A DNA stretch of 64,000 bases from an uncultured Chloroflexia bacterium. GTDB taxonomy: Bacteria > Chloroflexota > Dehalococcoidia > UBA2247 > RBG-13-53-26. Under the pieces are notes generated by a model that searched no databases, had not been told where the DNA came from, and was given only the letters and a program-made list of their open reading frames with translations. The stretch is taken from NCBI GenBank assembly GCA_963720375.1, contig CAVRFM010000023.1, positions 18,179-82,178 on the forward strand. The letters run 5' to 3'. This document shows positions 6,197-56,568 of the stretch, one piece after another. Positions within the stretch are counted from its first letter, which is position 1. Each line of letters opens with the position of its first letter. The translations under genes were made by a program, and so were the position numbers.

Positions 6197-6236
6197 AGTC
6201 TGAGGCATGGACTATACTTGCGAAGGGGGTTTCTAG

Positions 6237-12246: not shown

Positions 12247-12403
12247 TAACGGCTCCTCGTCAGGTTCTGCCAGGGCGTCATGAGGAAGATGGTATGACAG
12301 TCACTGCGATGCTGCTTTTGCATTGTAGGTCTGCTTGTTGATATTATAGATTATAAGGTAAGAATGAGCCCGATTCAAAGTCGGGGAAGATCGAGGAGGG
12401 TCG

Positions 12404-14011
12404 ATGGCTGAGAACAAAAATGGGCAAATATACTCAGTCTCTGGGATCCCCATAAAGGACATCTATACCCCAGAGGACGTGAAGAATATCAACTACGAGA
12501 AAGACATCGGCGCCCCCGGCAAGCCTCCATATACTCGGGGCGTGTACGCCAGTATGTACCGGGGCCAACTGTGGACCATCAGGCGTCTCACCGGCTATGA
12601 CAGCCCGGAGGCCACCAACGCCCGCTACAAGGAGGAGTATGCCCTGGGGCAGACAGGCTTCTCCATTGCTCCCGATATTTCCACTCCTTCGGGCATGGAC
12701 CCGGATGACCCCAGAGTGGCGCATGATATTGGCCACGCCGGCGTTCCCATCTACTCCATCGAAGATATGGAGGCTGTCTTCAAGGATCTGCCCATAGAGA
12801 AGTGTTCTGCTTTCTTGGCAGACAGGGTTGGTGGACTGCTGACACCTGCATACTTCGTCATGGCGCAAAGGCGAGGCATACCCCTCGATCAGGTCAGAGG
12901 GACAACGGCCAACGACATGCTGACCTGGAGCTCGATGGAGCTGGCCAACCAGCCTCCGCCAGAGGCCTACTTCCGGCTCTCCGTGGACCTCGTCGAGTGG
13001 TGCGCTCAGTACGCGCCGCGGTGGTATCCCATATCCATGAACTCCTACAACCCCAGAGACAACGGCATCAGCGCTATCCAGGAGCTGGGCATGCTCATGG
13101 CGGATGTTATCCAGTATTGCGATGAGGGGAAGCGGCGGGGCAGGGTTCCTTTGGACAAGTTCTGCAAGAGGTTTGCGTTCAACATGGCTGCCAACAACGA
13201 TCTCTTTGAGGAAATATGCAAACTACGTGCGGCCCGGCGCATGCTGCGCAAGATCATCAACGAAAGATTCGGGGTACAGGACCCGGCGTGCGGACAGTTC
13301 CGGGTGCACGTCCAGACCTCAGGCTCCACTCATACGCACCAGGAGCCTCTGAACAACGTCATCCGCATTGCCTACCAGACACTGGCTGCTGTCTTGGGCG
13401 GAGCCCAGTCTATACACGCCAACGGCTATGATGAAGCGGTGTGCCTGCCGACGGAACAAGCCATGCTGCTGGCCATTCGGACGGAGCAGATAGTAGGGCT
13501 CGAGTCCGGTGTTACCAATACCATAGACCCGCTCGGAGGCTCTTACTATGTTGAGTCCCTGACCAATGAGATAGAGAAGAGGGCATGGGAATATATCAAG
13601 AAGATCGAAGACCAGGGTGGTCTCTTGAAGGCCATCACCAATGGATGGATTCACCGGGAGTACAAACAGGCCATCATTGACTACGACAACAAACTGAAGT
13701 CCGGCGAACTTACCATTGTGGGCGTCAACAAGTTCCGCCTCGATCCGGACAAGGTGCCCTACAAGGTGCCCATCTTCAAGTCCGATCGGACCTCTGTCGA
13801 GTTTCTCAAGCAAAGGATCAAGAAGCTCAGAGAGACCAGGGACAAAGCCAAGCATGCCCAGGCCATGAAGAAGCTGGACGAGGTCCTCCGCAGCGACGCC
13901 AACTCTGTCCCGGCTATCAAGGAAGCGGTGGAAGCACATGCTACCCCCGGAGAGTTGGGGGCGGCTGTGATGAAAGTCTACGGCAAGTGGGCCTACCCGA
14001 TCGGTGTCTAG
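12404..14011 (+). CDS. methylmalonyl-CoA mutase-family catalytic (substrate-binding) subunit
   Basis: RGVYASMYRGQLWTIRRLTGY...PRVAHDIGHAGVPIYSIEDM matches the MCM/ICM alpha-subunit TIM-barrel signature. 535 aa, with a separate B12 subunit downstream. Confidence 0.8.
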   Translation: MAENKNGQIYSVSGIPIKDIYTPEDVKNINYEKDIGAPGKPPYTRGVYASMYRGQLWTIRRLTGYDSPEATNARYKEEYALGQTGFSIAPDISTPSGMDPDDPRVAHDIGHAGVPIYSIEDMEAVFKDLPIEKCSAFLADRVGGLLTPAYFVMAQRRGIPLDQVRGTTANDMLTWSSMELANQPPPEAYFRLSVDLVEWCAQYAPRWYPISMNSYNPRDNGISAIQELGMLMADVIQYCDEGKRRGRVPLDKFCKRFAFNMAANNDLFEEICKLRAARRMLRKIINERFGVQDPACGQFRVHVQTSGSTHTHQEPLNNVIRIAYQTLAAVLGGAQSIHANGYDEAVCLPTEQAMLLAIRTEQIVGLESGVTNTIDPLGGSYYVESLTNEIEKRAWEYIKKIEDQGGLLKAITNGWIHREYKQAIIDYDNKLKSGELTIVGVNKFRLDPDKVPYKVPIFKSDRTSVEFLKQRIKKLRETRDKAKHAQAMKKLDEVLRSDANSVPAIKEAVEAHATPGELGAAVMKVYGKWAYPIGV

Positions 14012-14444
14012 AGAAGGAGAAGAAGCAATGACTCAGAAGAAAGTCAGAGTTCTAATGGCCAAGCCGGGGCTGGAGGGTCACTGGCGCGGATTGATTTCCG
14101 TCAGCCAGGCTTTCAAGGATGCCGGCTTTGAAGTGATATACGGTGGCAGCATGCCTCCGACTGAGATCGCTGCGACCGCTCTTCAGGAAGACGTTGATAT
14201 AGTTGGCCTCAGCATACTCTGCTCCAACTACATGGAGCTGGTCACCGAGGTCATGAAGGAGCTCAAGGCCAAGAAGAAGGATGACGTAATCGTCATATTG
14301 GGTGGCATCATCTACGAGGAGGATTTTGATGCACTCCACAAGATGGGCGTCGATGGGATATACATTCCGGGCACTCCTCTGGACGATATAGTGGCCTCGG
14401 TCCGCCAAATCATTACCCGGGGCAAGAGGAAGGTTACCAGGTAG
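14004..14444 (+). CDS. cobalamin-binding small subunit of acyl-CoA mutase
   Basis: 146 aa. B12-binding Rossmann-like domain (VIYGGSMPPTEI, DIVGLSIL). 8-bp overlap with the catalytic-subunit gene. Confidence 0.75.
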   Translation: MSREGEEAMTQKKVRVLMAKPGLEGHWRGLISVSQAFKDAGFEVIYGGSMPPTEIAATALQEDVDIVGLSILCSNYMELVTEVMKELKAKKKDDVIVILGGIIYEEDFDALHKMGVDGIYIPGTPLDDIVASVRQIITRGKRKVTR

Positions 14445-15029: not shown

Positions 15030-15500
15030 ATGAGTGTAAAGGATCCATTGTGGTTGGCGAAGCATCTACATAGCAGGAAAAGGGTCCTGATCATGGCCGG
15101 TGCCCTGTGCGATCAAATAGAGCTGGAGGGCAAGAGCTTATTGGATTACGTAGCAGAGATATCCAAGAAGATAAATGCGCCCATTGCTGCTACGGGGAAT
15201 ACGGTTAATGGCTTGAGACAAAGAGGCATCGATACAAAAAAGGCATGGGCGATCGAAATGGTGAATTTCACGCGCTATGACTGGAAGCACCCTATCATGA
15301 ATGGAAAACCTGAAGTAATGGTCTTCATAGGCTATAGCCCGACACTTGCCAGCAACCTGGTCTCCGCGGTCAAGGATGTGGAGACTGTTGTGCTGGGCAA
15401 TACGTGTGTTGATGAGGCGACTTACTCTCTTCCTGATACCACCAGCTTCAAGGCGTGGCAGAAGGAACTGACGGATTTGATCCAGGCACTGGGGAAATAA
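15030..15500 (+). CDS. cdhB: CO dehydrogenase/acetyl-CoA synthase epsilon subunit (CdhB-like)
   Basis: 156 aa. VLIMAGAL...INAPIAATGN...MVFIGYSP pattern matches archaeal CdhB (PLLMVGTL...IPIAATG...MVIAIGF, recalled from memory). Confidence 0.6.
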   Translation: MSVKDPLWLAKHLHSRKRVLIMAGALCDQIELEGKSLLDYVAEISKKINAPIAATGNTVNGLRQRGIDTKKAWAIEMVNFTRYDWKHPIMNGKPEVMVFIGYSPTLASNLVSAVKDVETVVLGNTCVDEATYSLPDTTSFKAWQKELTDLIQALGK

Positions 15501-15509
15501 TAGCGCGAA

Positions 15510-16079
15510 ATGAACGATCAGGCTGCGATACCGAAGGAGCGGGCCAGTGACGGTGAGTTCCGGCACTACGTATTCAGTGTGTCGGAGGTGCGTGCTGAGA
15601 CAGAGCGATTTCTGGGGCAAGTAGGATACGAACTCAAGCCTCCAAAGTACATTGGCCTTGTTCAGCCTGATTTTCGAGCAAAGCGCAAGACGAGCAGTGG
15701 TACCTATGAACTTGTTGGGATGGTGCGTGACAATTTGGATCAGGCAGTTGAGGCGCTTACCAAGCTGGCTGCCGTAAAGGCTGCCAATCGTAATGTTGAC
15801 TGTGTCCTGGTTTTGCCTCCCATAAACGAGTACCTCTTGATCGAATGGCTGACAGAGGAGAGCGGTCGATGGTACTTTGGCCTGAAGGACTGCAAAATCG
15901 TGGTGTGGTTCTGCAATCCGGACAATAAGACAACGATATGCGTTATTGGAGCGCCGGCAGACAGGGACTTCCAGAAGCACTTCTATATGAGTACGATGAG
16001 TTTCGATGACTACATGTCTATCAGAGCGTCTCACCTCATTAAAGAGAGGCTTCTGGCAGAAGAAGAGGAAGAAGAGTAG
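15510..16079 (+). CDS. hypothetical protein with poly-Glu C-terminus
   Basis: 189-aa ORF tightly packed between cdhB and the SDR gene. No recognisable motif. Confidence 0.4.
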   Translation: MNDQAAIPKERASDGEFRHYVFSVSEVRAETERFLGQVGYELKPPKYIGLVQPDFRAKRKTSSGTYELVGMVRDNLDQAVEALTKLAAVKAANRNVDCVLVLPPINEYLLIEWLTEESGRWYFGLKDCKIVVWFCNPDNKTTICVIGAPADRDFQKHFYMSTMSFDDYMSIRASHLIKERLLAEEEEEE

Positions 16080-16127
16080 GCCGAAGAAGGCCTTCTAGAT
16101 CAAGCAAAAGATACTCTTGAGGAGGAG

Positions 16128-17054
16128 GTGAGAATGGCTAAACATCTGGAAGGTAAGAATGCTGTGGTCACCGGCGGAGGCCGGGGCATAGGAAGAGCAG
16201 TGGCATTGGAATTGGCCAGGAATGGCGCCAAGGTAGTCGTATCTGATCTCGGCGGCAGCGCGGCTGGAGAAGGCTCTGATGCGACGCCGGCGCAGCAGGT
16301 GGCAGATGAGATCAAGAAGGCTGGTGGGCAAGCGGTTGCCAATCATGATAACGTCACCGATTTCGCTGCGGCAGAGCGGATCATCAAGACATGCGTGGAC
16401 AACTTCGGCAGGATAGACATTCTGGTCAACTGCGCCGGTATTCTGCGTGATCGCATGATCTTCAACATGACGGAACAGGAGTGGGATGCCGTTATCGCTG
16501 TTCATCTGAAGGGCATGTTCAACATGTGCCGCCATGCATCCAGACTGATGAGGGAGCAGAAGTGGGGACGAATTGTTAGTACTACCTCTGATGCCTGGCG
16601 GGGTGCGCCGGGACAGCCTAACTACAGCGCCGCCAAGGGCGGCATTGTAAGTCTCACCTACACCATGGCGGGAGAGTTGGGCAAGTATAATGTGACTGTG
16701 AATGCCATTGCTCCAATAGCAGCTACCAGACTGACGATGAGTGATGAGGTGAAGGCGAGATTCACCAGGGCTCTTGAAGCGGGCATGATGAACAAGGAAC
16801 AGTATGAGGAGGCAATAAACATGCCCGGGCCGGAGTTTGTGGCTCCAATAGTGGCCTACCTTTGCACGGAAGAGGCAAAAATCATCAATGGTAAGGTTAT
16901 CGGGGTCAGCGGTGGTCGCGTGGCTATCTATACCAAACCATTCGAGATTGCGGGCCTCCATAGGCAGCCTAGGAAAGATGGTGCCTGGACAGTGGACGAG
17001 CTGATCAAGTTAGTCCCCGGGACTTTGATGGCTACACCATTGGTCATGATGTAG
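16128..17054 (+). CDS. SDR-family oxidoreductase (paralogue of 8977..9900)
   Basis: TGGGRGIGRA, NCAG, YSAAK motifs. Domain layout matches the 8977 product. Confidence 0.7.
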   Translation: MRMAKHLEGKNAVVTGGGRGIGRAVALELARNGAKVVVSDLGGSAAGEGSDATPAQQVADEIKKAGGQAVANHDNVTDFAAAERIIKTCVDNFGRIDILVNCAGILRDRMIFNMTEQEWDAVIAVHLKGMFNMCRHASRLMREQKWGRIVSTTSDAWRGAPGQPNYSAAKGGIVSLTYTMAGELGKYNVTVNAIAPIAATRLTMSDEVKARFTRALEAGMMNKEQYEEAINMPGPEFVAPIVAYLCTEEAKIINGKVIGVSGGRVAIYTKPFEIAGLHRQPRKDGAWTVDELIKLVPGTLMATPLVMM

Positions 17055-17082
17055 TTTGTGATCTTAAAGCGGATTTAACCTC

Positions 17083-17112
17083 GGTGCACCGTGCCTTAGA
17101 CCACGGTGCACC
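17083..17112. promoter_or_regulatory. perfect 11-bp inverted repeat GGTGCACCGTG-N8-CACGGTGCACC
   Basis: Seen directly between the SDR stop and the cdhC-1 start. No U-tract, so it is more consistent with a regulator binding site or an attenuator than with a simple terminator. Confidence 0.4.
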
Positions 17113-17241
17113 GGGATTTGGTTGTCTGGAGGAACAAGCAAAAACTGGCCTGTTTGAGAAGGCGCTTGTCTAAGGGTCTTCTCAAGCATGGCACAGTCTG
17201 ATATCTGATATATGTATGGATCTATGTAGAAGGAGGTCAAT

Positions 17242-18606
17242 GTGAGTGTTGCGGAAAGTGCCGAGATAAAGATACCAGCCGGAAGGGAGTATCAGTTGCC
17301 GACCGACCCTGATCATCTGTGGGATGGGTTGAAGGATATCGGGTTGGGGATAAGATGGGTAGCTGAGGTAAAAAAGGCCGACATGCAAATTGAGCTGTCG
17401 GGGCCAAAGTGGGAATACAAGAGTTACACCATCCTTGAGATCGTAGAAGAACCGGGGAAGGTCAGGAACGGCATAGTTAACCTTGTTGGCCCGGATATAC
17501 ATGAAGTCCCGCCTGGGAGTTCCTTCCCTATGGCATGGGACATCAAGGTCTATGGCCATGGGATAACCCAGAGACACCGGGAATACATTGAAAGACAAAT
17601 GGCCATGTCATTACATGGTATAGAGGGCTATATGGCCTTTGGCTCATTCCAGGCCCCCTGGATGCGCTTCAGCAAGGCTATCGTTGGACGACTCACCTTT
17701 GCGAAGCTGTGCCAGGTCATACATGCCTACGTCAAGACCGTTGTCCCGCAGGTGGAGGCGATGGAGTTCCGCTGGATCATTGCATCGGAGGAAGTTGGTG
17801 GCCTCAAGCTGATTGAGCCACTTTACAGGTTGGGTATCCAGAGGCTGAAGGCGCAGGAGCTGTCGGTCTCTCTTGAAGATGCTGATGTGGATATCTTCTA
17901 TGGCTGCACTATCTGCAAGTCGCTGGCCCCCAACCACGTGTGCGTCATTACACCGAGCCAGATACCGTACTGTGGCATCCTCTCCTATAATGGAGCGCAG
18001 GTGACGGTGGAGCTTGATCCGGAGGGCTATATCTTCCGGATGAGCAAAGGCGAGTGCAAAAATGAACAAATGGGCAGCTACACCGGTGTGGATGAGGCAG
18101 TCTACGAGAGGTCTAACCATCAGATAAAGCATGTGAATGTCTTCAGTGCCATAAAGTATCCTACTACCAACTGCGGTTGCTTCGAAGGGGCGGCATTCTA
18201 CATTCCTGAAGTAGATGGCCTTGGCCTGGCTATAAGACGGTACATTGGGGTAACTCCGTTGGGCGTAAAGTTCTCGCGTCTGGCCGGCATGATTTCGGGC
18301 GGCTCTCAGAATCATGGAAATAAGGGCGTATCCATGCGGTCCATGCAAAGCAAGACCTTTCTCAAGGGCGATGGAGGTTGGAGCAGGATAGTGTGGATGC
18401 CCGCCGATTTGAAGAAGGAAGTCGCGGAATACATTCCCGAAGAGATCTACGATAAGATTGCCACTGAGCAGGATACCGTTGATCCTATCGAGCTGAAAGA
18501 GTTTCTAAAGAAGAAGAAGCATCCGATAGTAGAGAAGTATTGGAAGAATGGCGAACCACAGCCACTGAAAGTACCACTCCCCGGAGCGAAGTGGCCCGAC
18601 GAATAG
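17242..18606 (+). CDS. cdhC: acetyl-CoA synthase catalytic subunit, archaeal short type (CdhC/AcsB-like), copy 1
   Basis: 454 aa. Contains the A-cluster Cys-Gly-Cys motif (NCGCFE) plus upstream Cys residues (CTICKS...CGIL). Confidence 0.75.
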   Translation: MSVAESAEIKIPAGREYQLPTDPDHLWDGLKDIGLGIRWVAEVKKADMQIELSGPKWEYKSYTILEIVEEPGKVRNGIVNLVGPDIHEVPPGSSFPMAWDIKVYGHGITQRHREYIERQMAMSLHGIEGYMAFGSFQAPWMRFSKAIVGRLTFAKLCQVIHAYVKTVVPQVEAMEFRWIIASEEVGGLKLIEPLYRLGIQRLKAQELSVSLEDADVDIFYGCTICKSLAPNHVCVITPSQIPYCGILSYNGAQVTVELDPEGYIFRMSKGECKNEQMGSYTGVDEAVYERSNHQIKHVNVFSAIKYPTTNCGCFEGAAFYIPEVDGLGLAIRRYIGVTPLGVKFSRLAGMISGGSQNHGNKGVSMRSMQSKTFLKGDGGWSRIVWMPADLKKEVAEYIPEEIYDKIATEQDTVDPIELKEFLKKKKHPIVEKYWKNGEPQPLKVPLPGAKWPDE

Positions 18607-18622
18607 CCTTTGGAGGTGGACT

Positions 18623-18838
18623 ATGGGAGAGAAGACCTGCGGTGTTTGTCAGAAGAAGGTAGCGGAGTTTGCATGTAGTGTGTGTGGCGTACCTCTGTGT
18701 GCTGAATGTGTTCGAGAGGTAGCCATAGAAAACCCTGGTCAGAGAGTTCTGGGTGTATTAACCAGCCCTTTGAAGTCCGGAATGAAGAAGCAAAAAGTAT
18801 GTGAGAAATGCATGAAGGAAGTGGACTTTGTTGAGTAG
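18623..18838 (+). CDS. Cys4x2 zinc-ribbon small protein, copy 1
   Basis: 71 aa with four CxxC pairs (CGVCQ, CSVCG, CAEC, CEKC). A paralogue sits at the same position in module 2. Confidence 0.6.
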   Translation: MGEKTCGVCQKKVAEFACSVCGVPLCAECVREVAIENPGQRVLGVLTSPLKSGMKKQKVCEKCMKEVDFVE

Positions 18839-19120
18839 CGCGGCTCCTTCTTGCTGTTGTTTTGGTGACCCTGTAATTTACAGCAAGTCACTTGATTGCC
18901 GAGAGGCTTTGACTTATTTGCTGGTGTATTCACTTTCTCAAGGTTCTTAAAGACGAAATTCAGTGGTATTTCGAACACGACATTGAAGAAGATCTCTACA
19001 CACTCTGCAGTGAATACCGGGAAGGTCTGCCAGGTGAATAGAGGATATATGTGTTCTGAATCGGTCGTCAATTGTTTGTTCTGCTGACTCAATTAAGCGA
19101 TATCTGGGAGGGAGAAAGCT

Positions 19121-21622
19121 GTGAAAGATAAGAGAATTGCTCATGTCGGATCTCTGGAGGTCGATATCAGCACAGTCGTGCGTGACCCGCGCGGTCATGA
19201 AGACGAAATTGTCGAGATAATGGAGAACGACTTTGTTGAGGGCCGCCATAGTAATTTTGGAGGATGGATAACTCTACTGCCCGATGCGGCAGACATAGCA
19301 GAACTGGATTATGCTCTGTTGAGCAGGTATCCGCCGTTATACACTCAGCCCAATGGTGTTTGCACTGACTGTGGCCTGGGCCCCTGCAACTTGAAAGAGG
19401 GTCAGGGAAAGTGCGGACTGGATATGGAGGCTTTCCAGGGCAGGTTAAGCTTACGGAAAGCATGCCGGGGTTGTATGACTCAACTAGTGGCCAGCCGACA
19501 ATTGCTGAACTACGCTCTCAAACGCTGGCCGGAGGATACGCCTGTCAGCATGGGTGAGATTCTCGGTATCTCAGATCATGCTCCTGCCATAAGCGTGTTA
19601 TCCGGGATACACGTAAAGACTTTAAGAGATCTTAACAGAGCGCTTTCTTATGGAGAGGAACAACTGGCCAAGCTCTTTCAGGCGAGTTATTCGGGCACTG
19701 GAACGGCGGTGAATTTTGAAAGCATGGTGCTGCATGCCGGGTCTGTTTTGCTCCTCACCATGGGTGTGGCTGAGCTGCTGAAGATCTCCTGCTATGGCTT
19801 TATCAGTGCTGCCAATCAGCCACTGGAGGCGATCGAGCAGTTTCCTCCTGCCACTTTAAATGGTGGGTGGGCATCCATGGAGAGTGGGAAGCCTGTCATA
19901 GCCTTTGTTGGGGATGACTTCCTGCCGGCATGGTGTGCCATCGATCATATGAAGCAGAACGGTCTGACAGAAAAGATTGAGATATGCGGCATGGGTTCAG
20001 CCGGTGATGACATAGTGAGATTCTACGATAGGTGCCGGATCGTGGCCCCGATGGTGAGGGCGCCAAAGGCGATCAGAAATGGCCTGTTTGATGTGGTTGT
20101 GGTCAGTCCAGGATGTATTCCCCTGGACCTTCTATCCCAGGCGGAGCGTGTCGATAGCAAGGTTATATGGGTTGGTCACAATGGAATCAGCAATCTAGCG
20201 GATAGCACGGATGAGCCATCAGACAAGATAGTAGAGGCCTTACTTCATGGAGGAAAGGCAGTCTGGATCAGGGACGTAGAGAAGGCTGGTGAGGTGGCGG
20301 TGAAGTTGGCACAGAAGGTCAAGAGAAGTGGTAATTACATTATCTCTGACGATGAAGCAATAAAACAGGCAAAGGGCCATAAGCAGGATTGTGATATTTG
20401 TTCCAGTGTCTGTCCCAATAATCTGCCTGTATCCAGGGCGGTCAGAGAATTGGGTAAGGGTGACTGGAAGGGTTTCTTCGAGGTGGAGAAAGGATGCAAT
20501 TTCTGCGGCAAATGTGATGAGGCCTGCCCCAGCAAGGTTCAACTGCGCGATATCATTGTGGCTGCCGAGAGAAAGCAGGCCGGCACCGATAAATTCATAA
20601 TGAGGCCAGGCAGGGGGCCGATATCAATAACTGAGCTGCTGCAATCTGCTTTCGCAGTAGGCTGGGGCAGCATACCAGCCATGGTGACCATCTTTGGTTG
20701 CGGCGATGCCAAGAAGGAGGAGATCGCCTGGATAGCCAGTGAGTTGCTTAACGGCGGTTGCATGGTCTTTGTGGCAGGGTGTGCCGGAGCTGAAGTAGCT
20801 CGATCTTTCAGCCAGGCGAAGAAGAAGTACCTCTTTCAAGAATATGCTGGCACTTGTGCCTCGAGAAATATTGTGAATTGCGGCAGTTGCTCTGCTATTT
20901 GCCATGCTGTCCCGATGTATCTCATGCTGCGGCCTTCTGGTGGCATTCCTCTGTATGGCAATCTACCACCGCTGGGAGATTCCATCAGTCTTGGTGGTGC
21001 TCAGTCTGTGATCATGTGGGGGGCATTGCCGGACAGAATGTATGCGGTGGCAGCTGCCTGGGCTCGGCTTGGATCAACGGTCATTGTAGGGCCTGCCTCA
21101 TCCTCAGGATGGAACCGCTACCTGGTTGGTGATAGATATGATCGCAGCAAGTGGTGGGTCTATCATGGTGAGACGGGTAAGAGGCGTGAGGTTGAACCGG
21201 TAAAGGAACACTGCATTGTGCCCGTGGAAACTAAAGAGGAAGCGTTGACTATGCTGGCAAGGTCTGTGTTGAATGTAAAGGACTACAGAGAGAGCCGAGC
21301 TACTCACCTGGAGGTGATGATTGACTACTTTGAGCGCTTCTATCAGCAGTTGCCGGAGGATTGGCCTCTCTTTGTGAGGTCAGATTTCGAACTGCCGCCG
21401 AGATACAGACGACGCATGGTCAATCTCCTGGGATCCGAGTATGGATGGGAGACTGAAGGTGTGAAGGTTAAGAGAGCAAAGAATAGAGATGGCAAGCTAA
21501 TGACCATGTCTGAGTTCGCAGCTAACTATGGGATGGAGCAAGGGATATATAGCACAAGGCTTCGCACCCAGTTACCCCTACGTCTCAGGGGTGTGGCTGA
21601 TGAAGGTAAGTCTAAAAAGTAA
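19121..21622 (+). CDS. cdhA: CO dehydrogenase catalytic subunit, archaeal CdhA-like, copy 1
   Basis: 833 aa. N-terminal CTDCGLGPC...GKCG Cys cluster. Two internal ferredoxin motifs (CDICSSVCPNN; CNFCGKCDEACPS) are typical of archaeal CdhA. Adjacent to cdhB and cdhC. Confidence 0.65.
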   Translation: MKDKRIAHVGSLEVDISTVVRDPRGHEDEIVEIMENDFVEGRHSNFGGWITLLPDAADIAELDYALLSRYPPLYTQPNGVCTDCGLGPCNLKEGQGKCGLDMEAFQGRLSLRKACRGCMTQLVASRQLLNYALKRWPEDTPVSMGEILGISDHAPAISVLSGIHVKTLRDLNRALSYGEEQLAKLFQASYSGTGTAVNFESMVLHAGSVLLLTMGVAELLKISCYGFISAANQPLEAIEQFPPATLNGGWASMESGKPVIAFVGDDFLPAWCAIDHMKQNGLTEKIEICGMGSAGDDIVRFYDRCRIVAPMVRAPKAIRNGLFDVVVVSPGCIPLDLLSQAERVDSKVIWVGHNGISNLADSTDEPSDKIVEALLHGGKAVWIRDVEKAGEVAVKLAQKVKRSGNYIISDDEAIKQAKGHKQDCDICSSVCPNNLPVSRAVRELGKGDWKGFFEVEKGCNFCGKCDEACPSKVQLRDIIVAAERKQAGTDKFIMRPGRGPISITELLQSAFAVGWGSIPAMVTIFGCGDAKKEEIAWIASELLNGGCMVFVAGCAGAEVARSFSQAKKKYLFQEYAGTCASRNIVNCGSCSAICHAVPMYLMLRPSGGIPLYGNLPPLGDSISLGGAQSVIMWGALPDRMYAVAAAWARLGSTVIVGPASSSGWNRYLVGDRYDRSKWWVYHGETGKRREVEPVKEHCIVPVETKEEALTMLARSVLNVKDYRESRATHLEVMIDYFERFYQQLPEDWPLFVRSDFELPPRYRRRMVNLLGSEYGWETEGVKVKRAKNRDGKLMTMSEFAANYGMEQGIYSTRLRTQLPLRLRGVADEGKSKK

Positions 21623-21700
21623 ATACGAACCCCCCGCCAGGTTCTGTACCCTGGCACGGTAGTCACGGGAAATAGGGGTTTCTGAACGTAGAAACCGATT

Positions 21701-23101
21701 GTGTTGTGTAGGTTCCACGAAAGGGGTATACAAATGGCTATTCCAGAGGAAGAAGCAGTATCCAAACTCCCACCGGGAAGGATATTTCAGTTGCCGACAG
21801 ACCTTGATCACCTTTGGGACGGGCTGGATGACGTCGGGCTCGGTCTAAGGTGGTTGAGTGAGGTGAAGAAAGCTGACATGCACATTGAGTTGGGTGGGCC
21901 TAAGTGGGACTATAAGATGTTCTCCATCTTCTACATTGAGGAAGATCCGGAAAAGGTCAGGGATGGAGAAGTCAAGTTGATCGGCCCGGACGTTCCAGAA
22001 GTGGCAGCAGGCACCTCATTACCCGGCGGGTTTACGATAAGGATCTATGGTAAACAATTGACTCAAGCACATCAGGGCTATGTATCCAGACAGATAGGAA
22101 CTGCGCTGCAAGGCATAGAAGGATTCATGCTCTTTGGAACGCCGGATGCTCTGTGGATAAGGATAAGCAAAGACGTGGCGAACAGGTTGACCTTTGCCAA
22201 GATATCTCAGTTTTGCTATGCCACCGCGAGAACGCTGATCCCTCAGGTAGATGCCATAGCATTCTTCTGGGCAGTAGGAGCTCCTGAAGTCGGTGGTGTT
22301 GAGATGATAAACCCGCTGGTTACCTGGGCTAAGGAGAAGTTTAAGATCATAAGTGCCAAGGAGCTCTACGATGATGAAGACGTAGATACCTTCTATGGTT
22401 GCACGATCTGCAAATCCCTGGCGCCAAATCATGCCTGTGTCCTTACGCCAAGCGCGCTGCCTTACTGCGGCATCATCGGCTATGATTCGGCTAAGGTAAC
22501 AGCAGAAATAGACCCGGAAGGGTATGTTTTTACTATTCCTAAAGGTGAATGCTTGGATCAGGAGAAAGGGCATTACACGGGAGTCGACCAGGCCATATGG
22601 GAGAAATGCAATCATCTGGTAAAGCGCGTGAACATCTACAGCAGCATAAACTATCCGACTACCAATTGTGGGTGCTTTGAGGCAGCATCTTTCTACATAC
22701 CGGATGTTGATGGTATCGGTCTGGCTATGCGGCGCTATACCAAGATGACACCGCTCGGTGTCAAGTTTTCCACTTTGGCAGGTATGATCTCCGGTGGGGC
22801 TCAGAATCATGGGTTCAAGGGATTGTCGATTGCCGGTATGGCGAGTAAGAACTTCCTGCGAGGAGATGGCGGTTGGAACCGGGTAGTCTGGATGCCTGCG
22901 GATTTGAAGAGGGATATCGCGGATGTGATTCCAGAGGAGGTCTATGACAAGATTGTCACTGAGGAAGAGACTATTGATCCTCTGGAGCTCAAGGAGTTGC
23001 TCCGCAAGAAAGGACACCCAATAGTCAAGCTGTTCTGGAAGAATGGCGAACCCCAGCCATTAAAGTTGCCGCTTCCCGGTGAAGACTGGCCGGATAACTA
23101 A
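21701..23101 (+). CDS. cdhC: acetyl-CoA synthase catalytic subunit (CdhC-like), copy 2
   Basis: 466 aa, about 60% identical to copy 1. NCGCFE A-cluster motif retained. Confidence 0.75.
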   Translation: MLCRFHERGIQMAIPEEEAVSKLPPGRIFQLPTDLDHLWDGLDDVGLGLRWLSEVKKADMHIELGGPKWDYKMFSIFYIEEDPEKVRDGEVKLIGPDVPEVAAGTSLPGGFTIRIYGKQLTQAHQGYVSRQIGTALQGIEGFMLFGTPDALWIRISKDVANRLTFAKISQFCYATARTLIPQVDAIAFFWAVGAPEVGGVEMINPLVTWAKEKFKIISAKELYDDEDVDTFYGCTICKSLAPNHACVLTPSALPYCGIIGYDSAKVTAEIDPEGYVFTIPKGECLDQEKGHYTGVDQAIWEKCNHLVKRVNIYSSINYPTTNCGCFEAASFYIPDVDGIGLAMRRYTKMTPLGVKFSTLAGMISGGAQNHGFKGLSIAGMASKNFLRGDGGWNRVVWMPADLKRDIADVIPEEVYDKIVTEEETIDPLELKELLRKKGHPIVKLFWKNGEPQPLKLPLPGEDWPDN

Positions 23102-23342
23102 ATTTAGATTTGGGGGAATGTTTATGGAAAAGATGTGTGATCTATGCCAAAAAAGGGTAGCGCCGTGGACATGCCATGAATGTGGTATCGCTTTGTGTGA
23201 CGAATGTTCCCGTGAGGTTCGTATTGATTCTACCAGACCTGGCCAGAGAATGATGGGCCGGATCACCAGCCCCATGAAGTCAGGGGTGCAGAAACTAAAG
23301 GTCTGCGAGAAGTGCTTCAAGGAAAAGGAGTTTCTCGGATAA
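23079..23342 (+). CDS. Cys4x2 zinc-ribbon small protein, copy 2
   Basis: 87 aa. CDLCQ, CHECG, CDEC, CEKC. Overlaps the cdhC-2 stop. Confidence 0.55.
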   Translation: MKTGRITKFRFGGMFMEKMCDLCQKRVAPWTCHECGIALCDECSREVRIDSTRPGQRMMGRITSPMKSGVQKLKVCEKCFKEKEFLG

Positions 23343-23365
23343 GAGGTACCCTTTTCTGGTGATGG

Positions 23366-25871
23366 TTGCTGAGGAGAGAAGTAATGGAGAAAAAGAGGAT
23401 TGCCCATGTAGGGCCTCACAAAGTTGACATAAGTGAAGTGGTGCGTGATCCCCGTGGTATTGAGGATATAGTCACGGAGATACTGGAGAAAGACTTTGTT
23501 GAGAGCCGCTATTCACAATTTGGGGCGTGGTTGAATATCTTGCCCGACGCGGCGGATATCGGTGATTGGGATCGCACTCTGCTGGAAAGATATGTGCCGC
23601 TATATACTCAGCCTCAAGGCACGTGCATTGATTGTGAGTTGGGTCCTTGCAGATCTCAAGGTAAGCAAAGGTAAATGCGGATTAGAGATGGATTCGTTTC
23701 AAGGCAGGCTGAGTTTGCGCAAGGCCTGCCGTGGCTGTATGGGCCAGATGGTAGCTACTCGTCATTTGTTGAACTATGCATTGAAGTTATGGGATGAAAG
23801 CAAGGCTGTCAGCATGGGTGAGCTCTTGACCATGTCGGATGCCTGCCCTCCTGTAGGCACTTTGAGCGGCATCTATGTGAAAACCCTCAAGGACTTGAAC
23901 AGGGTGCTCTCATATGGAGAGGCGCAGTTGGCTAAGCTGATGTCTGCGAGCTATTCAGGCACCGGAGCAGTGGCGGATTTTGAGAGCATGGTGATGCATG
24001 CTGGTTCTGTTCTGCTTCTGGCTATGGGAGTGTCTGAGATGATTAAGGTCGCTTGCTTCGGCTTTACGTCAGCCGCTAACCATAAGATTGATGAACTGGA
24101 GAATTTCCCGCCGGCCAACGTGGTTGGAGGATGGCCGTCCATAAAGGAAGGTAAGCCGGTAATTGCCTTTGTCGGCGATGATTTTCTGCCGGCATGGTGT
24201 GCCATAGAGTATCTCAAGCAGAATGAATTGTTGGACAAAGTCGAGATATGCGGTATTGGCCCTGCAGGTGATGACGTGGTGCGCTTCTATGACAAGTGCC
24301 GCATAATCGCTCCGATGGTGAAGGCGGGCAAAGCTATCAGAAATGGTGTCTTCGATGTGGTTGTAGCTGCGAACGGATGTATTCCTTTGGATATGCTATC
24401 TGAAGCGGCAAGGGTAAAGAGCAAGTTCATATGGGTAGGAGCGCAGGGAGTTGGCAATCTGGTCGATAAGACTGATGAACCTCTGGACAAGATAGTGAGT
24501 GCTCTGGTTGATGGTGAAGAGGCAGCTTGGATTAGAGATGTTGAGAAGGCTGGCCAGGTAGCAGTCAAGGTAGTCCAGCAAGTGAAGAGAACACGGCAAT
24601 TTATTCTAAGTGATGAGTTGGCAGTTGCGCAGGCTAAGAAGTGTAAGGATGATTGTGATCTTTGCTCTAGTGCTTGCCCCAATAGCTTGCCATTATCAAA
24701 GGCGGTCAGACTGTTACGCGGCGGTAACTGGGATGGTTTCTCAGAGGTGGAGAGAGGGTGCTATTTCTGTGGAAAGTGTGAAGAGGCTTGCTCGGCTGGG
24801 GTGAGGCTGCGTGACATAATAGTAGCGACTGAAAGGAAACAAGCGAAGAAGGACAAATTCATTATGAGAGCGGGAAGAGGTCCTCTCCCCCTCACTGAGA
24901 TACTGCAGTCGGCTTTTTCCATGGTCTGGGGTAATGCTCCCGGTATCGTGGTGATAGCGGGTTGTGGTGATGCTTCCCGCGATGATATCGGATGGCTGGC
25001 TCAAGAATTAACCAGACGAAACTGCATTGTCTTTGTGGCTGGATGCGCCGGTGCTGAGATTGCCCGCAACTACAGCGAAAGGAAGGGTAAGTATATTTTT
25101 GAGCAGTACCTGGCTTCTATTGAGCCACGGTCTCTCATCAACTGCGGTGGCTGCACCGCAATTTCCCTGGCGAACAACATGTATATGTACTCGCGTGCTG
25201 CCGGAGGCATTCCTCTCTATGGGGGCATACCAGAGGTAGGCGAAGGGTCACTTTATACTACCTTCACGTTGCTTGTGTGGGGTGCTCTGCCTGACAGGAT
25301 GTATGCAGCAGCAGCAGCATATGCCCGTCTTGGGATAAGGGTTGTAGTGGGTCCGGCTTCGGGTTGGACTTGGGGTCGCTATTTGCCTGGCAATAGGTAT
25401 GATCGGAGCAAATGGTGGGTCTATCATGGAGACAATGGTAGTAAGAGGGAAACCGAACCTGTTCCGGAGCATTTTATTATCCCCGTGGAAACCAAAGAGG
25501 AAGCACTGACCATGATGCCCCACACTTTCTTCAGTACATCTGAGATGAGGGAGGGTCGGGCTGCTCGTCTTGACCTGCTTATTGAGTTGTATCGGCTGTT
25601 CTATGGCCAACTTCCCGATGATTGGGATTTGTTGGTGAGGTCCCATTTGGATATCCCGACTAGGCACAGGATCAGGTTGGTTAAGCTACTTCGGGATGAA
25701 TATGGTTGGGAAGGCGATGGATTGAAGATTACCAAGGCCAGGAATCGTGATGGGAAACTGTTAACCCTGTCGGAATTCAATACCAGCTACGGTATGGAGC
25801 TGGGAAGATACCACTGCAGACTGAAGAGACTATTGCCAAAGAGTGTGAGAGATAGAGAAAAGGGCAGTTAG
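23366..25871 (+). CDS. cdhA: CdhA-like CO dehydrogenase subunit, copy 2, with apparent +1 frameshift at ~23651
   Basis: ORFs 23366..23674 and 23562..25871 together reconstitute a CdhA-1 homologue. The frames join directly after CELGPC (TGC-A-GATCTC). Confidence 0.6.
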
Positions 25872-26365
25872 TCCTCCTCATCCTTAGTTTCCTCCGATTT
25901 TACGAGGTCAAGTGCGCTGAAGGGGCATTTTTCAGCGCATAGGTTACAGATATCAAGACCCGGTACTGCGCGTTTACAGCTTGACCATTCTACTACGTTA
26001 AGATTGCCGTCTATCACTTTAATGACTGGTGGTACGGGGGCGCGCTGAGAGAGCCTGCCGCCGGAAGTGATAGTGGTAAGTGCTCTATCGCAGACGGCGA
26101 CGCAATCACCGCAACCGGTGCATCTCGACCTATCAATGACGTGATCTGTACCTTTGATGCGCTCTCCTTCCCCCAACATCTCCTTCAGCATATCGTATGA
26201 ATCACGGAATTCTTCCTTGAGAAGGAGGGGGCAGTCAGCCGGCTTCTTATTCCTGCTTATGAGGTCGAAGGCAAAGGCATAACACGTGGGAGAACCACAG
26301 AGCTTACAATTGGTGCGTGGCAATAGCCTGTACATCTGGAGCGGTTGAAGATCTTTCTTAGGCAA
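25868..26365 (-). CDS. RnfB-like polyferredoxin
   Basis: The N-terminal LPRTNCKLCGSPTCYAFAF motif is the Fe-S domain found in RnfB and the AcsC N-terminus. Two CxxCxxCxxxC(P) ferredoxin motifs follow. Confidence 0.6.
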   Translation of the reverse strand: MPKKDLQPLQMYRLLPRTNCKLCGSPTCYAFAFDLISRNKKPADCPLLLKEEFRDSYDMLKEMLGEGERIKGTDHVIDRSRCTGCGDCVAVCDRALTTITSGGRLSQRAPVPPVIKVIDGNLNVVEWSSCKRAVPGLDICNLCAEKCPFSALDLVKSEETKDEED

Positions 26366-26762
26366 CTTTCCTCCTGACCAGGAGGTCTGAGGGCGTGGTA
26401 ATATTCTTTTCGGTCGGTATGGCTGTCACATCTATCATCTTAAGGTTTGGCAGTTGCGATACCGATGGATCGTAGCTTCCCAGGTAGTTAGAATACAGGC
26501 TGGACGGCATATGGCCTATGCCTTCTTCGATAGCGGTTTCTGATTTTGCTGCCACCACCACGGAGCCTGATTTGCCTCTGATCTCGATAGGGGCGCCACT
26601 CTTAAGCCCCAGCTTTTTCAGATCAGCCGCGGATAGGTGCACCACGGCAGACCTGGTCTGATATTCATCGCCCAATCCATCTCTCTGCCTGGCAATCGCC
26701 TGGTGAATATCGTCATAGGTCACGATGGTCAGACTAATACCCTGGTTAGATGAATCCATCAA
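26358..26762 (-). CDS. fwdD: formylmethanofuran dehydrogenase subunit D-like (molybdopterin-binding domain)
   Basis: 134 aa. Overlaps fwdB by 4 nt. Size and context match the FwdD family. Confidence 0.5.
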   Translation of the reverse strand: MMDSSNQGISLTIVTYDDIHQAIARQRDGLGDEYQTRSAVVHLSAADLKKLGLKSGAPIEIRGKSGSVVVAAKSETAIEEGIGHMPSSLYSNYLGSYDPSVSQLPNLKMIDVTAIPTEKNITTPSDLLVRRKVA

Positions 26763-27982
26763 ATGCTCCCTGCCAATTGTTTCAGGACTTCCTCCTCGGT
26801 AGGCTGATCTACTTTTTTTGGCCCGGCTAATGCTACCTCAGCCCCATCCATTCTTATCATTGAGCCACCGTATTCTACGCCGGGCAGTGCTGTTGGTATG
26901 ACCACATCAGCGGAGATCGTGGTAGGTGTACGGAAGTGATCCAAACAGATGACGTTTATGCCCTGCAGATTCTTCATTATGGACTGAGGCAGAGCTGAAA
27001 ACGGATCTGCCCCCATTATTAGCAGGCATTCGGGGACACGGTTTCTTACTTGTTCCAATAAGGAGAACTCACTTCCGTGAGAAATGCTGCCGGCAAAGCT
27101 TATGCTGTTAACATATCCCGTCTGTTTGTAGAGCGATTGATGGAATCCTCTCATGTTGGCTTCTGCGATCATGGGAATCACAGCAACCCTGGTCGACTGA
27201 CTGAACGTATGTACCATCTTGCTGAATGAGGTGAGATCATTGTCAAGAGAGTAGATCAGGCCGAGCCCGCAGAAGATGACGCAAAAGCGAGATTTTGCCA
27301 CCATTTCTCTGAATTTTCTGGCTTCCTCACGTGCGTTTTGTCCCTCATCGAGGATGGTATTGATGAATCCCTTATCCTGTCCAGGCTTGATTCTGAAGGG
27401 CGGCTTACACATTGAGCTTAACTCAGTCTGTCTAACCTCGACGCAGCTTAGTGTTACCTTGGGGTACCATCCGGCGGGATTATAATCAGCATAGGCATAG
27501 TAAGTGTACTTCGAAAGGTGCCTCGGGTGGGTGTGGGGAGGATTGGCACCCCAGTAGATTAGCAGATCTGCATTATCTTTTACTTCGGAGAGAGAGCATG
27601 TTGGCAGATCCTCGGTAAGGATTTTCTGCATCATGACACCATATGAAAAGGATGAGGCGTCATCGATAGTTCCGCCAAGCCTTTTTGCCAGATCGATGGC
27701 AACCGCCTGTGATTCTAAGGTCGAATTATCAAGACCAAAGACGAGGAGATTCTTTGCCTTGGAAAGGAGGTGCACTGCCTCTTGAATGGCTTCTTCCAAA
27801 GAGCGCCTTTGGCCTCTAATGAGGGCCTCTGCCCGGCGCTGCGGATCGAAGCTGGAACGGAGATAGGTCGCCCCCTTGGCACAGGCGTTCTCGATACGGC
27901 CCAGATTGGCACCGTCGATCTCAACCCGGATATCGTCGCATAGGCAACCGCATCCGGTGCAGACCAAGTTCTGAAAGCTCAA
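26759..27982 (-). CDS. fwdB: formylmethanofuran dehydrogenase subunit B-like (bis-MGD oxidoreductase fold)
   Basis: N-terminal VCTGCGCLCDD Fe-S motif and downstream blocks (DLLIYWGANPPHTHPRH) align with archaeal FwdB as recalled from memory. Confidence 0.65.
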   Translation of the reverse strand: MSFQNLVCTGCGCLCDDIRVEIDGANLGRIENACAKGATYLRSSFDPQRRAEALIRGQRRSLEEAIQEAVHLLSKAKNLLVFGLDNSTLESQAVAIDLAKRLGGTIDDASSFSYGVMMQKILTEDLPTCSLSEVKDNADLLIYWGANPPHTHPRHLSKYTYYAYADYNPAGWYPKVTLSCVEVRQTELSSMCKPPFRIKPGQDKGFINTILDEGQNAREEARKFREMVAKSRFCVIFCGLGLIYSLDNDLTSFSKMVHTFSQSTRVAVIPMIAEANMRGFHQSLYKQTGYVNSISFAGSISHGSEFSLLEQVRNRVPECLLIMGADPFSALPQSIMKNLQGINVICLDHFRTPTTISADVVIPTALPGVEYGGSMIRMDGAEVALAGPKKVDQPTEEEVLKQLAGSI

Positions 27983-28100
27983 TTGAAGACCTCACTTAAC
28001 ATTGCGGATATCATCTGTATGCCCGATGATTTGTTCCGGCCCTTCACTATAAGTTGCAGATTGAATGACCTGGTCCAATGAGATACTCAGTTGGTGAGCT

Positions 28101-30311: not shown

Positions 30312-30329
30312 TTTGTATATCGTCCGACT

Positions 30330-56278: not shown

Positions 56279-56568
56279 CGGATAATCCTCCTGTCTGATA
56301 CCATAATCGTCATTCGTTGCTACATTGGAATTGGTTTAACCAATGTCCCAGGGGTTTTCGAAGTCTAGTCGATTATTCTATCACCTCACATTCGAAAAGG
56401 CATTTTGATCTGGCATGATTGTAGTAACCGTAGCAGCCAGAATACTCTGCTTGGCTGGTTTGCCCAGGCAAGTGAGCTTGCGGTATCATATCCTCTAGTC
56501 TGCATAAAAGAACCGGAGACTTATCTCATTCTATCTTCGGCCATTGCCGATAAAAGAGGAGGATCAAA

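Follow-up and report, generated by a model that had tools for sequence, protein, structure and literature searches.

A conserved module around a CdhC-type acetyl-CoA synthase with a ligand-deficient CODH-like subunit in an uncultured member of the Dehalococcoidia

Does a bacterial gene cluster with the layout of an archaeal acetyl-CoA decarbonylase/synthase (ACDS) encode a working carbon monoxide dehydrogenase (CODH) for the Wood-Ljungdahl pathway, or have its parts been recruited for something else? This question is raised by a stretch of 64,000 nucleotides (hereafter the window) from contig CAVRFM010000023.1 of an uncultured Chloroflexia bacterium assigned to the Dehalococcoidia (assembly GCA_963720375.1). 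Between positions 15030 and 25871 it carries, co-directionally on the plus strand, a cdhB-like gene and two successive units consisting of a cdhC-like acetyl-CoA synthase (ACS) gene, a zinc-ribbon gene and a cdhA-like gene. A first-pass annotation, made from the sequence alone, had read these genes as archaeal-type Cdh in a bacterial genome, possibly serving a purpose other than the Wood-Ljungdahl pathway. A listing of open reading frames (ORFs) combined with profile searches recovered the cluster and every gene named in it, and the archaeal layout is supported, as is the bacterial context, which is borne out by rpoB (TIGR02013), rpoC (TIGR02386), a Clp ATPase, Dtd and a MiaB-type radical SAM protein in the same window. 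The identification of the CdhA-like proteins as the CODH of Cdh did not survive. Based on sequence comparison, we propose with moderate confidence that the locus is a conserved Ni-Fe-S enzyme module built around a CdhC-type ACS and not a canonical CODH/ACS. The suspicion of a use outside the Wood-Ljungdahl pathway is supported to the extent that the module is probably not an ordinary enzyme of that pathway.

Catalytic residues of the CdhA-like and CdhC-like proteins

In Ni-CODHs, His261 and Cys295 coordinate the pendant iron of the C-cluster, and His93 and Lys563 perform acid-base catalysis (CODH-II numbering). For the two CdhA-like proteins of the window (copy 1, 19121 to 21622; copy 2, 23384 to 25871 and divided over two frames; both on the plus strand), the equivalent positions were read from an alignment to solved archaeal CdhA (8RIU, 9C0Q) and from a family alignment of 114 sequences, in which the canonical CdhA controls (P0115-P0120) have H, CC, H and K at these sites. 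Where canonical CdhA coordinates the pendant iron through His (GHN), both copies have Asp, as do 97 of 97 close relatives (GDD or GDN), and a deeper branch of the family has GN[DN]. Cys1, the Cys ligand of the pendant iron (CCT), has given way to Ser (copy 1) or Pro (copy 2), and G-[P/A/S] is found in all family members. The acid-base or relay His is Gln in both copies (Gln and other residues across the family), and the catalytic Lys (QKA) has become Arg (DRM) in the family. Compared with archaeal CdhA, copy 1 accordingly reads GDD for GHN, GSA for CCT, Q for the relay His and DRM for QKA. Cys2 to Cys5, which hold the Ni and Fe3S4 part of the C-cluster, are invariant (Cys332, Cys527, Cys554 and Cys590), and a further residue, Cys289 within the motif EICG, is conserved in 92 of 97 members. 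The N-terminal Cys motif is C-x2-C-x4-C…C, whereas the canonical one is C-x2-CC-x-C-x4-C…C, so that the Cys of the D-cluster is gone and a B motif with four Cys is left.

Because the ligands of the pendant iron and the acid-base residues are replaced, the CdhA-like proteins are, judged by their residues, not bona fide CdhA or CODH. In agreement with this, neither copy reaches the cut-off of the canonical CdhA model (group A-1; TIGR00314, 450 bits for copy 1 and 422 bits for copy 2, cut-off 781). The first-pass annotation had itself named the C-cluster ligands as the point on which its assignment would turn, and in the alignment to solved structures those of the pendant iron are missing. Its description of proteins of about 830 residues with internal ferredoxin inserts holds: copy 1 has 833 and the repaired copy 2 has 828 residues, and the Fer4 inserts with the E- and F-cluster motifs are kept in both. 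The first ligand of the E-cluster in copy 1 is His420 (H-x3-C-x2-C-x3-C-P). A His at this position occurs in 24 family members, the copy-1-type clade including P0001-P0026; in the copy-2 type and the rest of the family, Cys occupies the position. The paralogues differ systematically in this ligand.

The CdhA variant itself is not new, at least as a sequence. Inoue et al. (2019; Front Microbiol 9:3353; PMC6344411) catalogued it as structural group A-4 of the Ni-CODHs, with OIP92259 as representative, and noted its clustering with ACS and left its function open. The occurrence of such genes in bacteria, implied to be surprising in the first-pass annotation, was therefore already on record. Group A-4 shares with the proteins described here the absence of a D-cluster, the exchange of the C-cluster His for Asp and of Cys1 for Pro (Ser or Ala in copy-1 types), the retention of Cys2 to Cys5, the replacement of the acid-base His by Gln and of the Lys by Arg, the E- and F-clusters and the neighbouring ACS subunit. 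Copy 2 matches this signature exactly, and copy 1 deviates by Ser in place of Pro and by His as the first E-cluster ligand. As far as the available text goes, the catalogue deals with sequences only, with a guess at a role in the Wood-Ljungdahl pathway, and describes neither the accessory genes nor the two paralogous sub-clades found here. It further presents groups A-4 and A-6 as exclusively bacterial (PMC6344411), whereas the N-type sister branch found here includes ANME-1/Methanophagales and Ca. Alkanophaga. Later surveys discard sequences devoid of C-cluster ligands (PMC13240472). In the open-access literature we found no function for A-4 or CdhA-like proteins beyond the 2019 catalogue and such surveys, and no description of the paralogue clades, the archaeal relatives or the multi-gene module with its AF2093-like subunits and degenerate Fwd part. 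Database labels for the family diverge: it appears as 'acetyl-CoA decarbonylase/synthase alpha' in some pipelines and as 'hypothetical' at NCBI.

A precedent for the re-use of a CODH fold exists. As cited in PMC13056359, ChCODH-V (clade D; Jeoung et al. 2022), in which one C-cluster ligand is replaced, is without CO/CO2 activity. Like the proteins described here it is a CODH scaffold with altered ligands; unlike them it is a stand-alone protein of the CooS type without an ACS partner, and its only exchange is Cys1 to Glu (PMC13056359).

On the ACS side of the locus, the set of A-cluster ligands is complete. An alignment of CdhC-like copy 1 (17242 to 18606, plus strand) to 9C0S_E and 9FR0 identified the A-cluster ligands, C-x2-C-x8-C-x9-C together with Cys-Gly-Cys, all of which are present in copy 1, in copy 2 (21701 to 23101, plus strand) and in 35 further partner sequences. 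The short CdhC-type proteins of 454 and 466 residues with an NCGCFE motif, as described at first reading, are thus confirmed in length and motif, and the A-cluster ligands, likewise marked there for comparison with solved structures, are all kept in both copies. Both proteins exceed the cut-off of NF003379 (382 and 386 bits, cut-off 372) and lie on either side of that of TIGR00316 (353.2 and 356.3 bits, cut-off 355.95). They belong to a distinct subfamily with 514 bits to the nearest 50%-identity representative and at most 284 bits to all others, in which TNCGCFE takes the place of the canonical TSCGCFE. The gate Phe of the motif CQSFAP is Leu in copy 1; across the bacterial A-4 partners, Leu, Val or Ile stands there. 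On the strength of their ligand sets, the CdhC-like proteins look catalytically competent.

Extent, composition and distribution of the module

Although the genes between 15030 and 25871 are as first annotated, the boundary drawn there is not that of the conserved unit, which comprises about 12 genes and runs on to 33131, with module genes on the minus strand from 25868 to 32128 and a last one on the plus strand from 32325 to 33131. Similarly, the cdh-type genes had been listed correctly, but a short-chain dehydrogenase/reductase (SDR) gene and a gene for a 189-residue protein inside the cluster had been overlooked. The same is true for the surroundings, where cdhD and cdhE are indeed lacking and genes for MeaB and a B12-dependent acyl-CoA mutase (11404 to 14444) in front of the unit had escaped notice.

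At the 5′ side of the unit, the CdhB (epsilon)-like protein (15030 to 15500, plus strand) is very divergent: its match to PF02552 is weak, with 21 bits lying exactly at the cut-off, and TIGR00315 gives 36 bits against a cut-off of 101. It is followed on the same strand by the 189-residue protein (15510 to 16079), which had no family match in the profile search, and by the FabG-like SDR (16128 to 17054; PF00106, 165 bits; NF005861, 292 bits). Each CdhC-like gene is succeeded by a double zinc ribbon on the plus strand, one of 71 residues with four CxxC pairs and weak B-box/FYVE/DZR matches (18623 to 18838) and one of 72 residues with weak zinc-finger matches (23124 to 23342). The stretch between the SDR gene and CdhC-like copy 1 contains a very stable GC-rich hairpin at 17080 to 17115 (plus strand; stem of 14 pairs, 10 of them G-C; a pattern match only). 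Termination, attenuation or RNA processing could take place here, and the cluster might be transcribed or processed as two units split at this point. Promoter and terminator signals in the scan were not above shuffled expectation, and a search for riboswitches and other RNAs over the full window yielded one tRNA and nothing else.

The minus-strand genes start with an Fe-S protein (25868 to 26365), which combines a [4Fe-4S] domain of the CdhE/RnfB N-terminal type (PF04060, 46 bits) with a ferredoxin domain for two [4Fe-4S] clusters (Fer4). Its match to the CdhE model NF003195 is confined to residues 5-56 and includes neither the TIM barrel nor the corrinoid-binding part. Next to it, a FwdD-like protein with a molybdopterin-dinucleotide-binding fold (26358 to 26762; PF01568, 34 bits; NF042908 FwdD, 41 bits) and a FwdB-like protein (26759 to 27982; 184 bits to 5T5I_B; TIGR03129, 317 bits against a cut-off of 328) are encoded. 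The pair aligns end to end with FwdB and FwdD of 5T5I, and the Cys residues of the N-terminal [4Fe-4S] motif are kept in all FwdB-like members. Unlike Fwd, the module comes without FwdA and FwdC and its partner is an ACS instead of methanofuran chemistry; Cys118, His119 and Arg288 are absent from the FwdB-like protein of the window. Arg288 is missing from all members, and in the Dehalococcoidia lineage of the window SVCHG has become SFSYG, with loss of the W/Mo ligand Cys118 and of His119. Members from Desulfatiglans-type and other loci (L001, L022, L025, L029) retain the W/Mo-ligand Cys and sometimes the His, so that the role of this subunit may differ between lineages. The loss of the metal-ligand Cys recalls what we take to be the situation in the non-redox FhcB of methylotrophs.

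Three putative maturation proteins complete the minus-strand block. A ChlD-like protein with AAA+ and VWA domains (28101 to 30311; PF00092 VWA; PF01078; TIGR02442, 120 bits) is a putative cofactor-insertion chaperone. The CooC/AcsF-like P-loop ATPase (30330 to 31091; PF01656 CbiA) has the deviant Walker A motif GKGGVGKT and, with C108-Y-C110, the CXC motif of the CooC/AcsF family, which makes it a putative Ni-insertion factor. A ChlI/MoxR-like AAA+ ATPase is encoded at 31088 to 32128 (PF07726; PF07728; TIGR02030, 100 bits). The last gene of the unit, back on the plus strand, specifies a protein of 268 residues from the ATG at 32325 (32325 to 33131), whose N-terminal beta domain is followed by a C-terminal domain resembling restriction endonucleases. 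This protein and the 189-residue protein are homologous to each other (hhalign 87.5%) and to AF_2093 (profile, E=2e-4), and their AlphaFold models have pLDDT values of 86 and 85, respectively. The idea that they are hidden CdhD/CdhE subunits or methyltransferases was rejected, as both have AF2093-like, restriction-endonuclease-like folds and neither a TIM-barrel nor a corrinoid fold. The module is therefore without CdhD and CdhE.

The latter conclusion agrees with the searches for these subunits. None of the CdhD, CdhE, AcsC, AcsD and AcsE models matched any scanned ORF of the 64-kb window, as the first-pass annotation had stated for cdhD, cdhE and a methyltransferase, and no CdhD or CdhE was found in six Pfam-annotated related loci (L001, L079-L083). 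In the window and in these loci, the corrinoid Fe-S protein and methyltransferase of the five-subunit ACDS, or of a CODH/ACS with corrinoid iron-sulfur protein, are absent, and the approximately 50-residue FeS domain is the only CdhE-related part of the module. Genes for CdhD, CdhE and the methyl branch may lie in other parts of the genome. The module resembles archaeal ACDS (CdhABCDE; 3CF4, 8RIU, 9C0Q-T) in that homologues of alpha, epsilon and beta, 32-39% identical to the canonical subunits, are encoded in a single operon, that CdhC is short and devoid of the N-terminal domain of its bacterial counterpart, that alpha contains the E/F ferredoxin insert and that the A-cluster is intact. It differs from ACDS in the absence of the gamma and delta corrinoid subunits, in its extra conserved subunits and in the missing catalytic C-cluster residues and D-cluster of alpha. 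An ACS without a functional CODH, as proposed here, is a feature of another member of the Dehalococcoidia, Dehalococcoides mccartyi, which has an incomplete Wood-Ljungdahl pathway and an ACS but no CODH. In that organism, however, the ACS is a bacterial AcsB accompanied by a corrinoid iron-sulfur protein, and no CODH-like partner is present.

Relatives were collected by a scan of one genome per species, which yielded 77 distinct loci, and gene presence was scored by phmmer; as long antisense ORFs confound crude ORF calls, absences in the resulting matrix are approximate. The ligand-deficient CdhA-like family comprises about 110 proteins with the same substitutions. Its hosts include Dehalococcoidia/Chloroflexota, Thermodesulfobacteriota, further Deltaproteobacteria-type bacteria, Syntrophales and one metagenome-assembled genome (MAG) of a spirochaete (Spirochaetota). 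The full core of CdhA-, CdhC-, FwdB-, ChlD-, CooC- and MoxR-like proteins occurs together in 17 loci from Dehalococcoidia, Thermodesulfobacteriota/Desulfatiglans, Deltaproteobacteria and unclassified bacteria. A CdhB-like protein accompanies the CdhA-like protein in about 36 loci, in 30 of which the 189-residue protein is found as well; the zinc ribbon stands beside the CdhA-like gene in 46 loci, and the 268-residue protein was scored in 20. The closest loci, with 83-85% CdhA identity and the same synteny, stem from uncultured Dehalococcoidia. In a Desulfatiglans MAG (L001) the order is CdhC-like, zinc ribbon, CdhA-like, a 153-residue and a 191-residue protein, MoxR-like, CbiA-like, VWA/ChlD-like, a 407-residue protein, Molydop_binding, ferredoxin and a 258-residue protein. 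In the window, the matching genes occupy the minus strand from 25868 to 32128 and the plus strand from 32325 to 33131. The deeper N-type branch includes sequences from Methanophagales/ANME-1, Ca. Alkanophaga and Methanosarcinales MAGs (loci L042-L064 and L083). In Ca. Alkanophaga (L050, L057) the N-type gene is found beside CdhB-like, CdhC-like, AF2093-like and thiolase genes, and the CdhA-like gene of the ANME-1 locus L083 is an orphan with an uninformative context. Several of the MAGs originate from tar biofilms or Guaymas Basin; a link to hydrocarbons was considered and treated as a sampling effect.

Duplication of the CdhC-CdhA unit and neighbouring genes

The tandem duplication of the cdhC-cdhA unit, first put at about 60% protein identity and called ancient, was measured at 59.9% for CdhC and 62.5% for CdhA. 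In a rough neighbour-joining tree of the CdhA-like proteins, canonical CdhA falls outside the family, and a long branch leads to the N-type (bacterial A-6 and archaeal sequences) and D-type A-4 proteins. The A-4 sequences of the Dehalococcoidia form two sister clades, each containing one copy from the window. The copy-1 clade is characterised by D-[A/S]-Q-R and a His-ligated E-cluster, the copy-2 clade by D-P-Q-R and Cys. In some relatives the two units reside at separate loci (L008/L020, L009/L019, L011/L018). The two sister clades and the separated units indicate that the duplication is old and that both copies are maintained. One of the separate copy-2 units, in a Dehalococcoidia MAG (L018, 5201 to 15078), is followed by an 821-residue protein with a weak match to a quinohemoprotein-amine-dehydrogenase domain, two ADP-forming acyl-CoA synthetase genes and an aldehyde:ferredoxin oxidoreductase gene.

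The frameshift reported for copy 2 of cdhA is present in the sequence and probably absent from the organism. One extra base directly after TGC at ~23651 separates the frames, which meet between GPC and DLKVSKGKCG. Removal of this base restores an intact protein of 828 residues with 96.4% identity to an intact database protein (P0032). In blastn comparisons with four related loci, a gap of one nucleotide appeared at this site in every relative, and copy 2 is intact in L080, which has the same gene order. A second frameshift of one nucleotide disrupts a [NiFe] hydrogenase large-subunit gene near 47887 on the minus strand, where GDYRL and PPDVN are split over two frames and the ORF 46793 to 47908 spans residues ~164-507 only. 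Since the indel is private to copy 2 of this sequence and a second one exists in the window, the copy 2 frameshift is probably a sequence error; a very recent mutation is also conceivable. Programmed frameshifting was rejected in view of the lack of a slippery or homopolymer context, the intact orthologues and the second, random-looking indel in the window. The hydrogenase gene also has an in-frame TGA at 48189 to 48191 (minus strand), at the second Cys of the N-terminal Ni-binding motif RxCGxCxxxH (RICGV before and PTAH after the stop codon), and its C-terminal motif reads DPCLAC. The TGA could be a candidate selenocysteine codon at an unusual position.

Upstream of the unit, a MeaB-type G-protein chaperone is encoded on the minus strand (11404 to 12246; PF03308, 283 bits), followed on the plus strand by the large subunit (12404 to 14011; PF01642, 523 bits) and the small B12-binding subunit (14004 to 14444; PF02310; TIGR00640, 135 bits) of a split B12-dependent acyl-CoA mutase. 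These genes precede the module in loci of the Dehalococcoidia only (L002-L016, L079, L080), and the SDR gene inside the operon is likewise specific to them. The closest solved structure to the mutase large subunit is HcmA (4R3U, 372 bits). At the specificity positions it has Leu where methylmalonyl-CoA mutase (MCM) has Tyr89 and 2-hydroxyisobutyryl-CoA mutase (HCM) has Ile90, Ala at Asp117 of HCM, and Glu at Arg207 of MCM and Gln208 of HCM. The Ile90 and Asp117 of HcmAB are thus not present, and the residues match neither of the two characterised types that were aligned. The mutase at 12404 to 14444 may, going by these residues, act on a new substrate.

In other lineages the neighbours are different ones. 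An acyl-CoA dehydrogenase and a reductase of the old yellow enzyme type adjoin the Desulfatiglans locus L001, a thiolase with DUF35/HMGCS-like proteins and a 3-hydroxyacyl-CoA dehydrogenase are found at L057, L081 and L082, and aldehyde:ferredoxin oxidoreductase and ADP-forming acyl-CoA synthetases at L018 and L075. Taken together, the gene neighbourhoods point to acyl-CoA metabolism as their common theme. Within the window, about 30 kb from the module, a gene for the alpha subunit of an ADP-forming acetate-CoA ligase (minus strand) adjoins a family III CoA-transferase gene (plus strand; 54851 to 57783), an arrangement that fits an acyl-CoA-based energy metabolism. At the other end of the window, ORFs for a BglII-like restriction endonuclease and, behind it, an SRA-HNH endonuclease (5681 to 6935, plus strand) lie near a SAM methyltransferase gene (3339 to 4208, minus strand); the group has the look of a small defence or restriction island.

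Proposed function and its alternatives

How might an ACS work next to a CODH-like subunit that lacks its catalytic residues? We favour, with confidence no more than middling, an ACS-centred enzyme that would act on acetyl-CoA or a related acyl-CoA and in which the CODH-like and Fwd-like parts would provide a scaffold and a low-potential electron path. The A-cluster would be the catalytic centre and would form or cleave the C-C(O)-S bonds in acetyl-CoA or in an acyl-CoA close to it. The CdhA/CdhB-like pair, the FeS/ferredoxin protein and the FwdB/FwdD-like pair would serve as docking scaffold and would pass low-potential electrons for reductive activation, with no catalysis on CO2 or CO. Metal clusters would be inserted by the CooC-like and ChlI/ChlD-like ATPases, and the zinc ribbon and the two AF2093-like proteins would act as structural or regulatory subunits. 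No corrinoid subunit is encoded within the module, and C1 and alkyl partners would be supplied to, or taken from, enzymes encoded elsewhere. Since its neighbours there are the B12-dependent acyl-CoA mutase, MeaB and the SDR, the module might be wired into acyl-CoA catabolism or fermentation in the Dehalococcoidia lineage.

Several points weigh against this proposal. Retention of a full CODH-sized scaffold, presumably with its tunnel, merely as an electron wire is not parsimonious. A variant C-cluster could have been formed, in which Asp265 and Cys289 might bind the pendant metal and Arg replace the Lys, and C1 conversion would then be possible. The metal-ligand Cys, and sometimes His, kept by FwdB-like proteins of other lineages hints at real catalysis there. 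Finally, the acyl-CoA neighbours vary by lineage, with mutase and SDR confined to one clade.

The most conventional explanation is that an archaeal-type CODH/ACS of the ordinary kind was acquired laterally and serves the Wood-Ljungdahl pathway, with its corrinoid protein and methyltransferase encoded elsewhere; its CdhA-like subunit would then be active by means of alternative ligands. The CdhC-CdhA order together with CdhB and the intact A-cluster resembles ACDS, the module has a CooC-like maturase, such genes are routinely scored as ACDS/CODH in genome papers on sediment Chloroflexi, and Inoue et al. proposed a 'possible involvement in WLP' for ACS-clustered A-4 proteins (PMC6344411). We nevertheless regard it as unlikely, given that four catalytic positions are replaced together and invariantly across the family, that the TIGR00314 score of 450 bits is far below 781, that CdhD and CdhE never stand beside the module in the loci examined, and that FwdB/FwdD-like, ChlI/ChlD-like and AF2093-like genes are unknown in acs/cdh operons. 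Moreover, single-ligand variants such as ChCODH-V are inactive (cited in PMC13056359). At the opposite extreme, the cluster would be a relic, in decay and without function, of cdh genes that had been transferred, as might be suspected from the frameshift in copy 2 and the missing catalytic residues. The same substitutions are, however, fixed in about 110 proteins of several phyla with long and intact ORFs, the Fe-S and A-cluster motifs are strongly conserved, the orthologues of copy 2 are intact and the second frameshift in the window suggests a sequence error. This leaves the relic with a very small probability, and a pseudogene was rejected on account of the conservation.

Two further explanations assign the module a chemistry of its own. 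In one of them the FwdB/FwdD-like pair would bind formate or, in some lineages, make it, and the altered C-site with its Asp, Arg and Gln would dehydrate the formate to CO in a non-redox step, for tunnelling to the A-cluster. It would account for the FwdB/FwdD-like genes as a conserved part of the module, for the FwdA-like amidohydrolase in the N-type (A-6) loci L043, L054 and L067, for the FwdB Cys and His retained in some lineages, for the strict conservation and carboxylate-friendly nature of the new C-site residues, and for the retained CODH-like scaffold, hence probably a tunnel to ACS. Yet it is pure inference, we know of no formate-entry ACS of this kind, the FwdB-like protein of the window's lineage lacks Cys, His and Arg, with the Arg288 missing throughout, and dehydration of formate to CO is endergonic by ~17 kJ/mol (estimated from standard redox potentials). 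We consider it improbable. The other would have the A-cluster join CO and CoA to a ketone or to a secondary or tertiary alkyl group, giving a branched acyl-CoA that would be linearised by the atypical B12 mutase and oxidised by the SDR. By analogy, it would parallel the conversion of acetone via 2-hydroxyisobutyryl-CoA and 3-hydroxybutyryl-CoA to acetoacetyl-CoA in sulfate reducers. To our knowledge, no ACS accepts ketone or secondary or tertiary alkyl substrates, which counts against it, as do the absence of mutase and SDR from the module in all other lineages, the lack of the HCM signature residues Ile90 and Asp117 and the chance that the association is mere inherited synteny. In its favour, MeaB, the HcmA-like mutase and the FabG-like SDR are syntenic in Dehalococcoidia whose CdhA-like proteins are 74-85% identical, bacterial A-4 partners have Leu, Val or Ile where ACS has its gate Phe, and the acetone clusters of sulfate reducers hold the same SDR-MeaB-mutase set, with the C1 donor still unknown (PMC7888143). 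It, too, has a low probability in our estimation. A new A-cluster enzyme that dispenses with CO2-derived CO and a corrinoid-bound methyl group, by way of either formate entry or non-methyl carbonylation, is overall a rather unlikely identity for the A-4 complex.

The ACS-centred proposal has consequences for the reading of genomes. CODH/ACS genes serve as markers of the Wood-Ljungdahl pathway and of CO metabolism, and the family described here is common in subsurface Dehalococcoidia and Desulfobacterota. An inactive CODH-like subunit would mean that 'archaeal-type CODH' counts, and the acetogenesis deduced from them, are inflated in both groups. An intact A-cluster in the company of a re-purposed CODH scaffold, a degenerate Fwd and dedicated maturases amounts to a natural experiment on ACS without CODH, and the module may reveal new Ni-dependent carbon-carbon chemistry. 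Should formate entry or the non-methyl version prove true, it would constitute a previously unknown route to make or break the C-C bonds of acyl-CoA, widespread in sediment Dehalococcoidia and Desulfobacterota and with relatives in ANME-1 and alkane-oxidising archaea.

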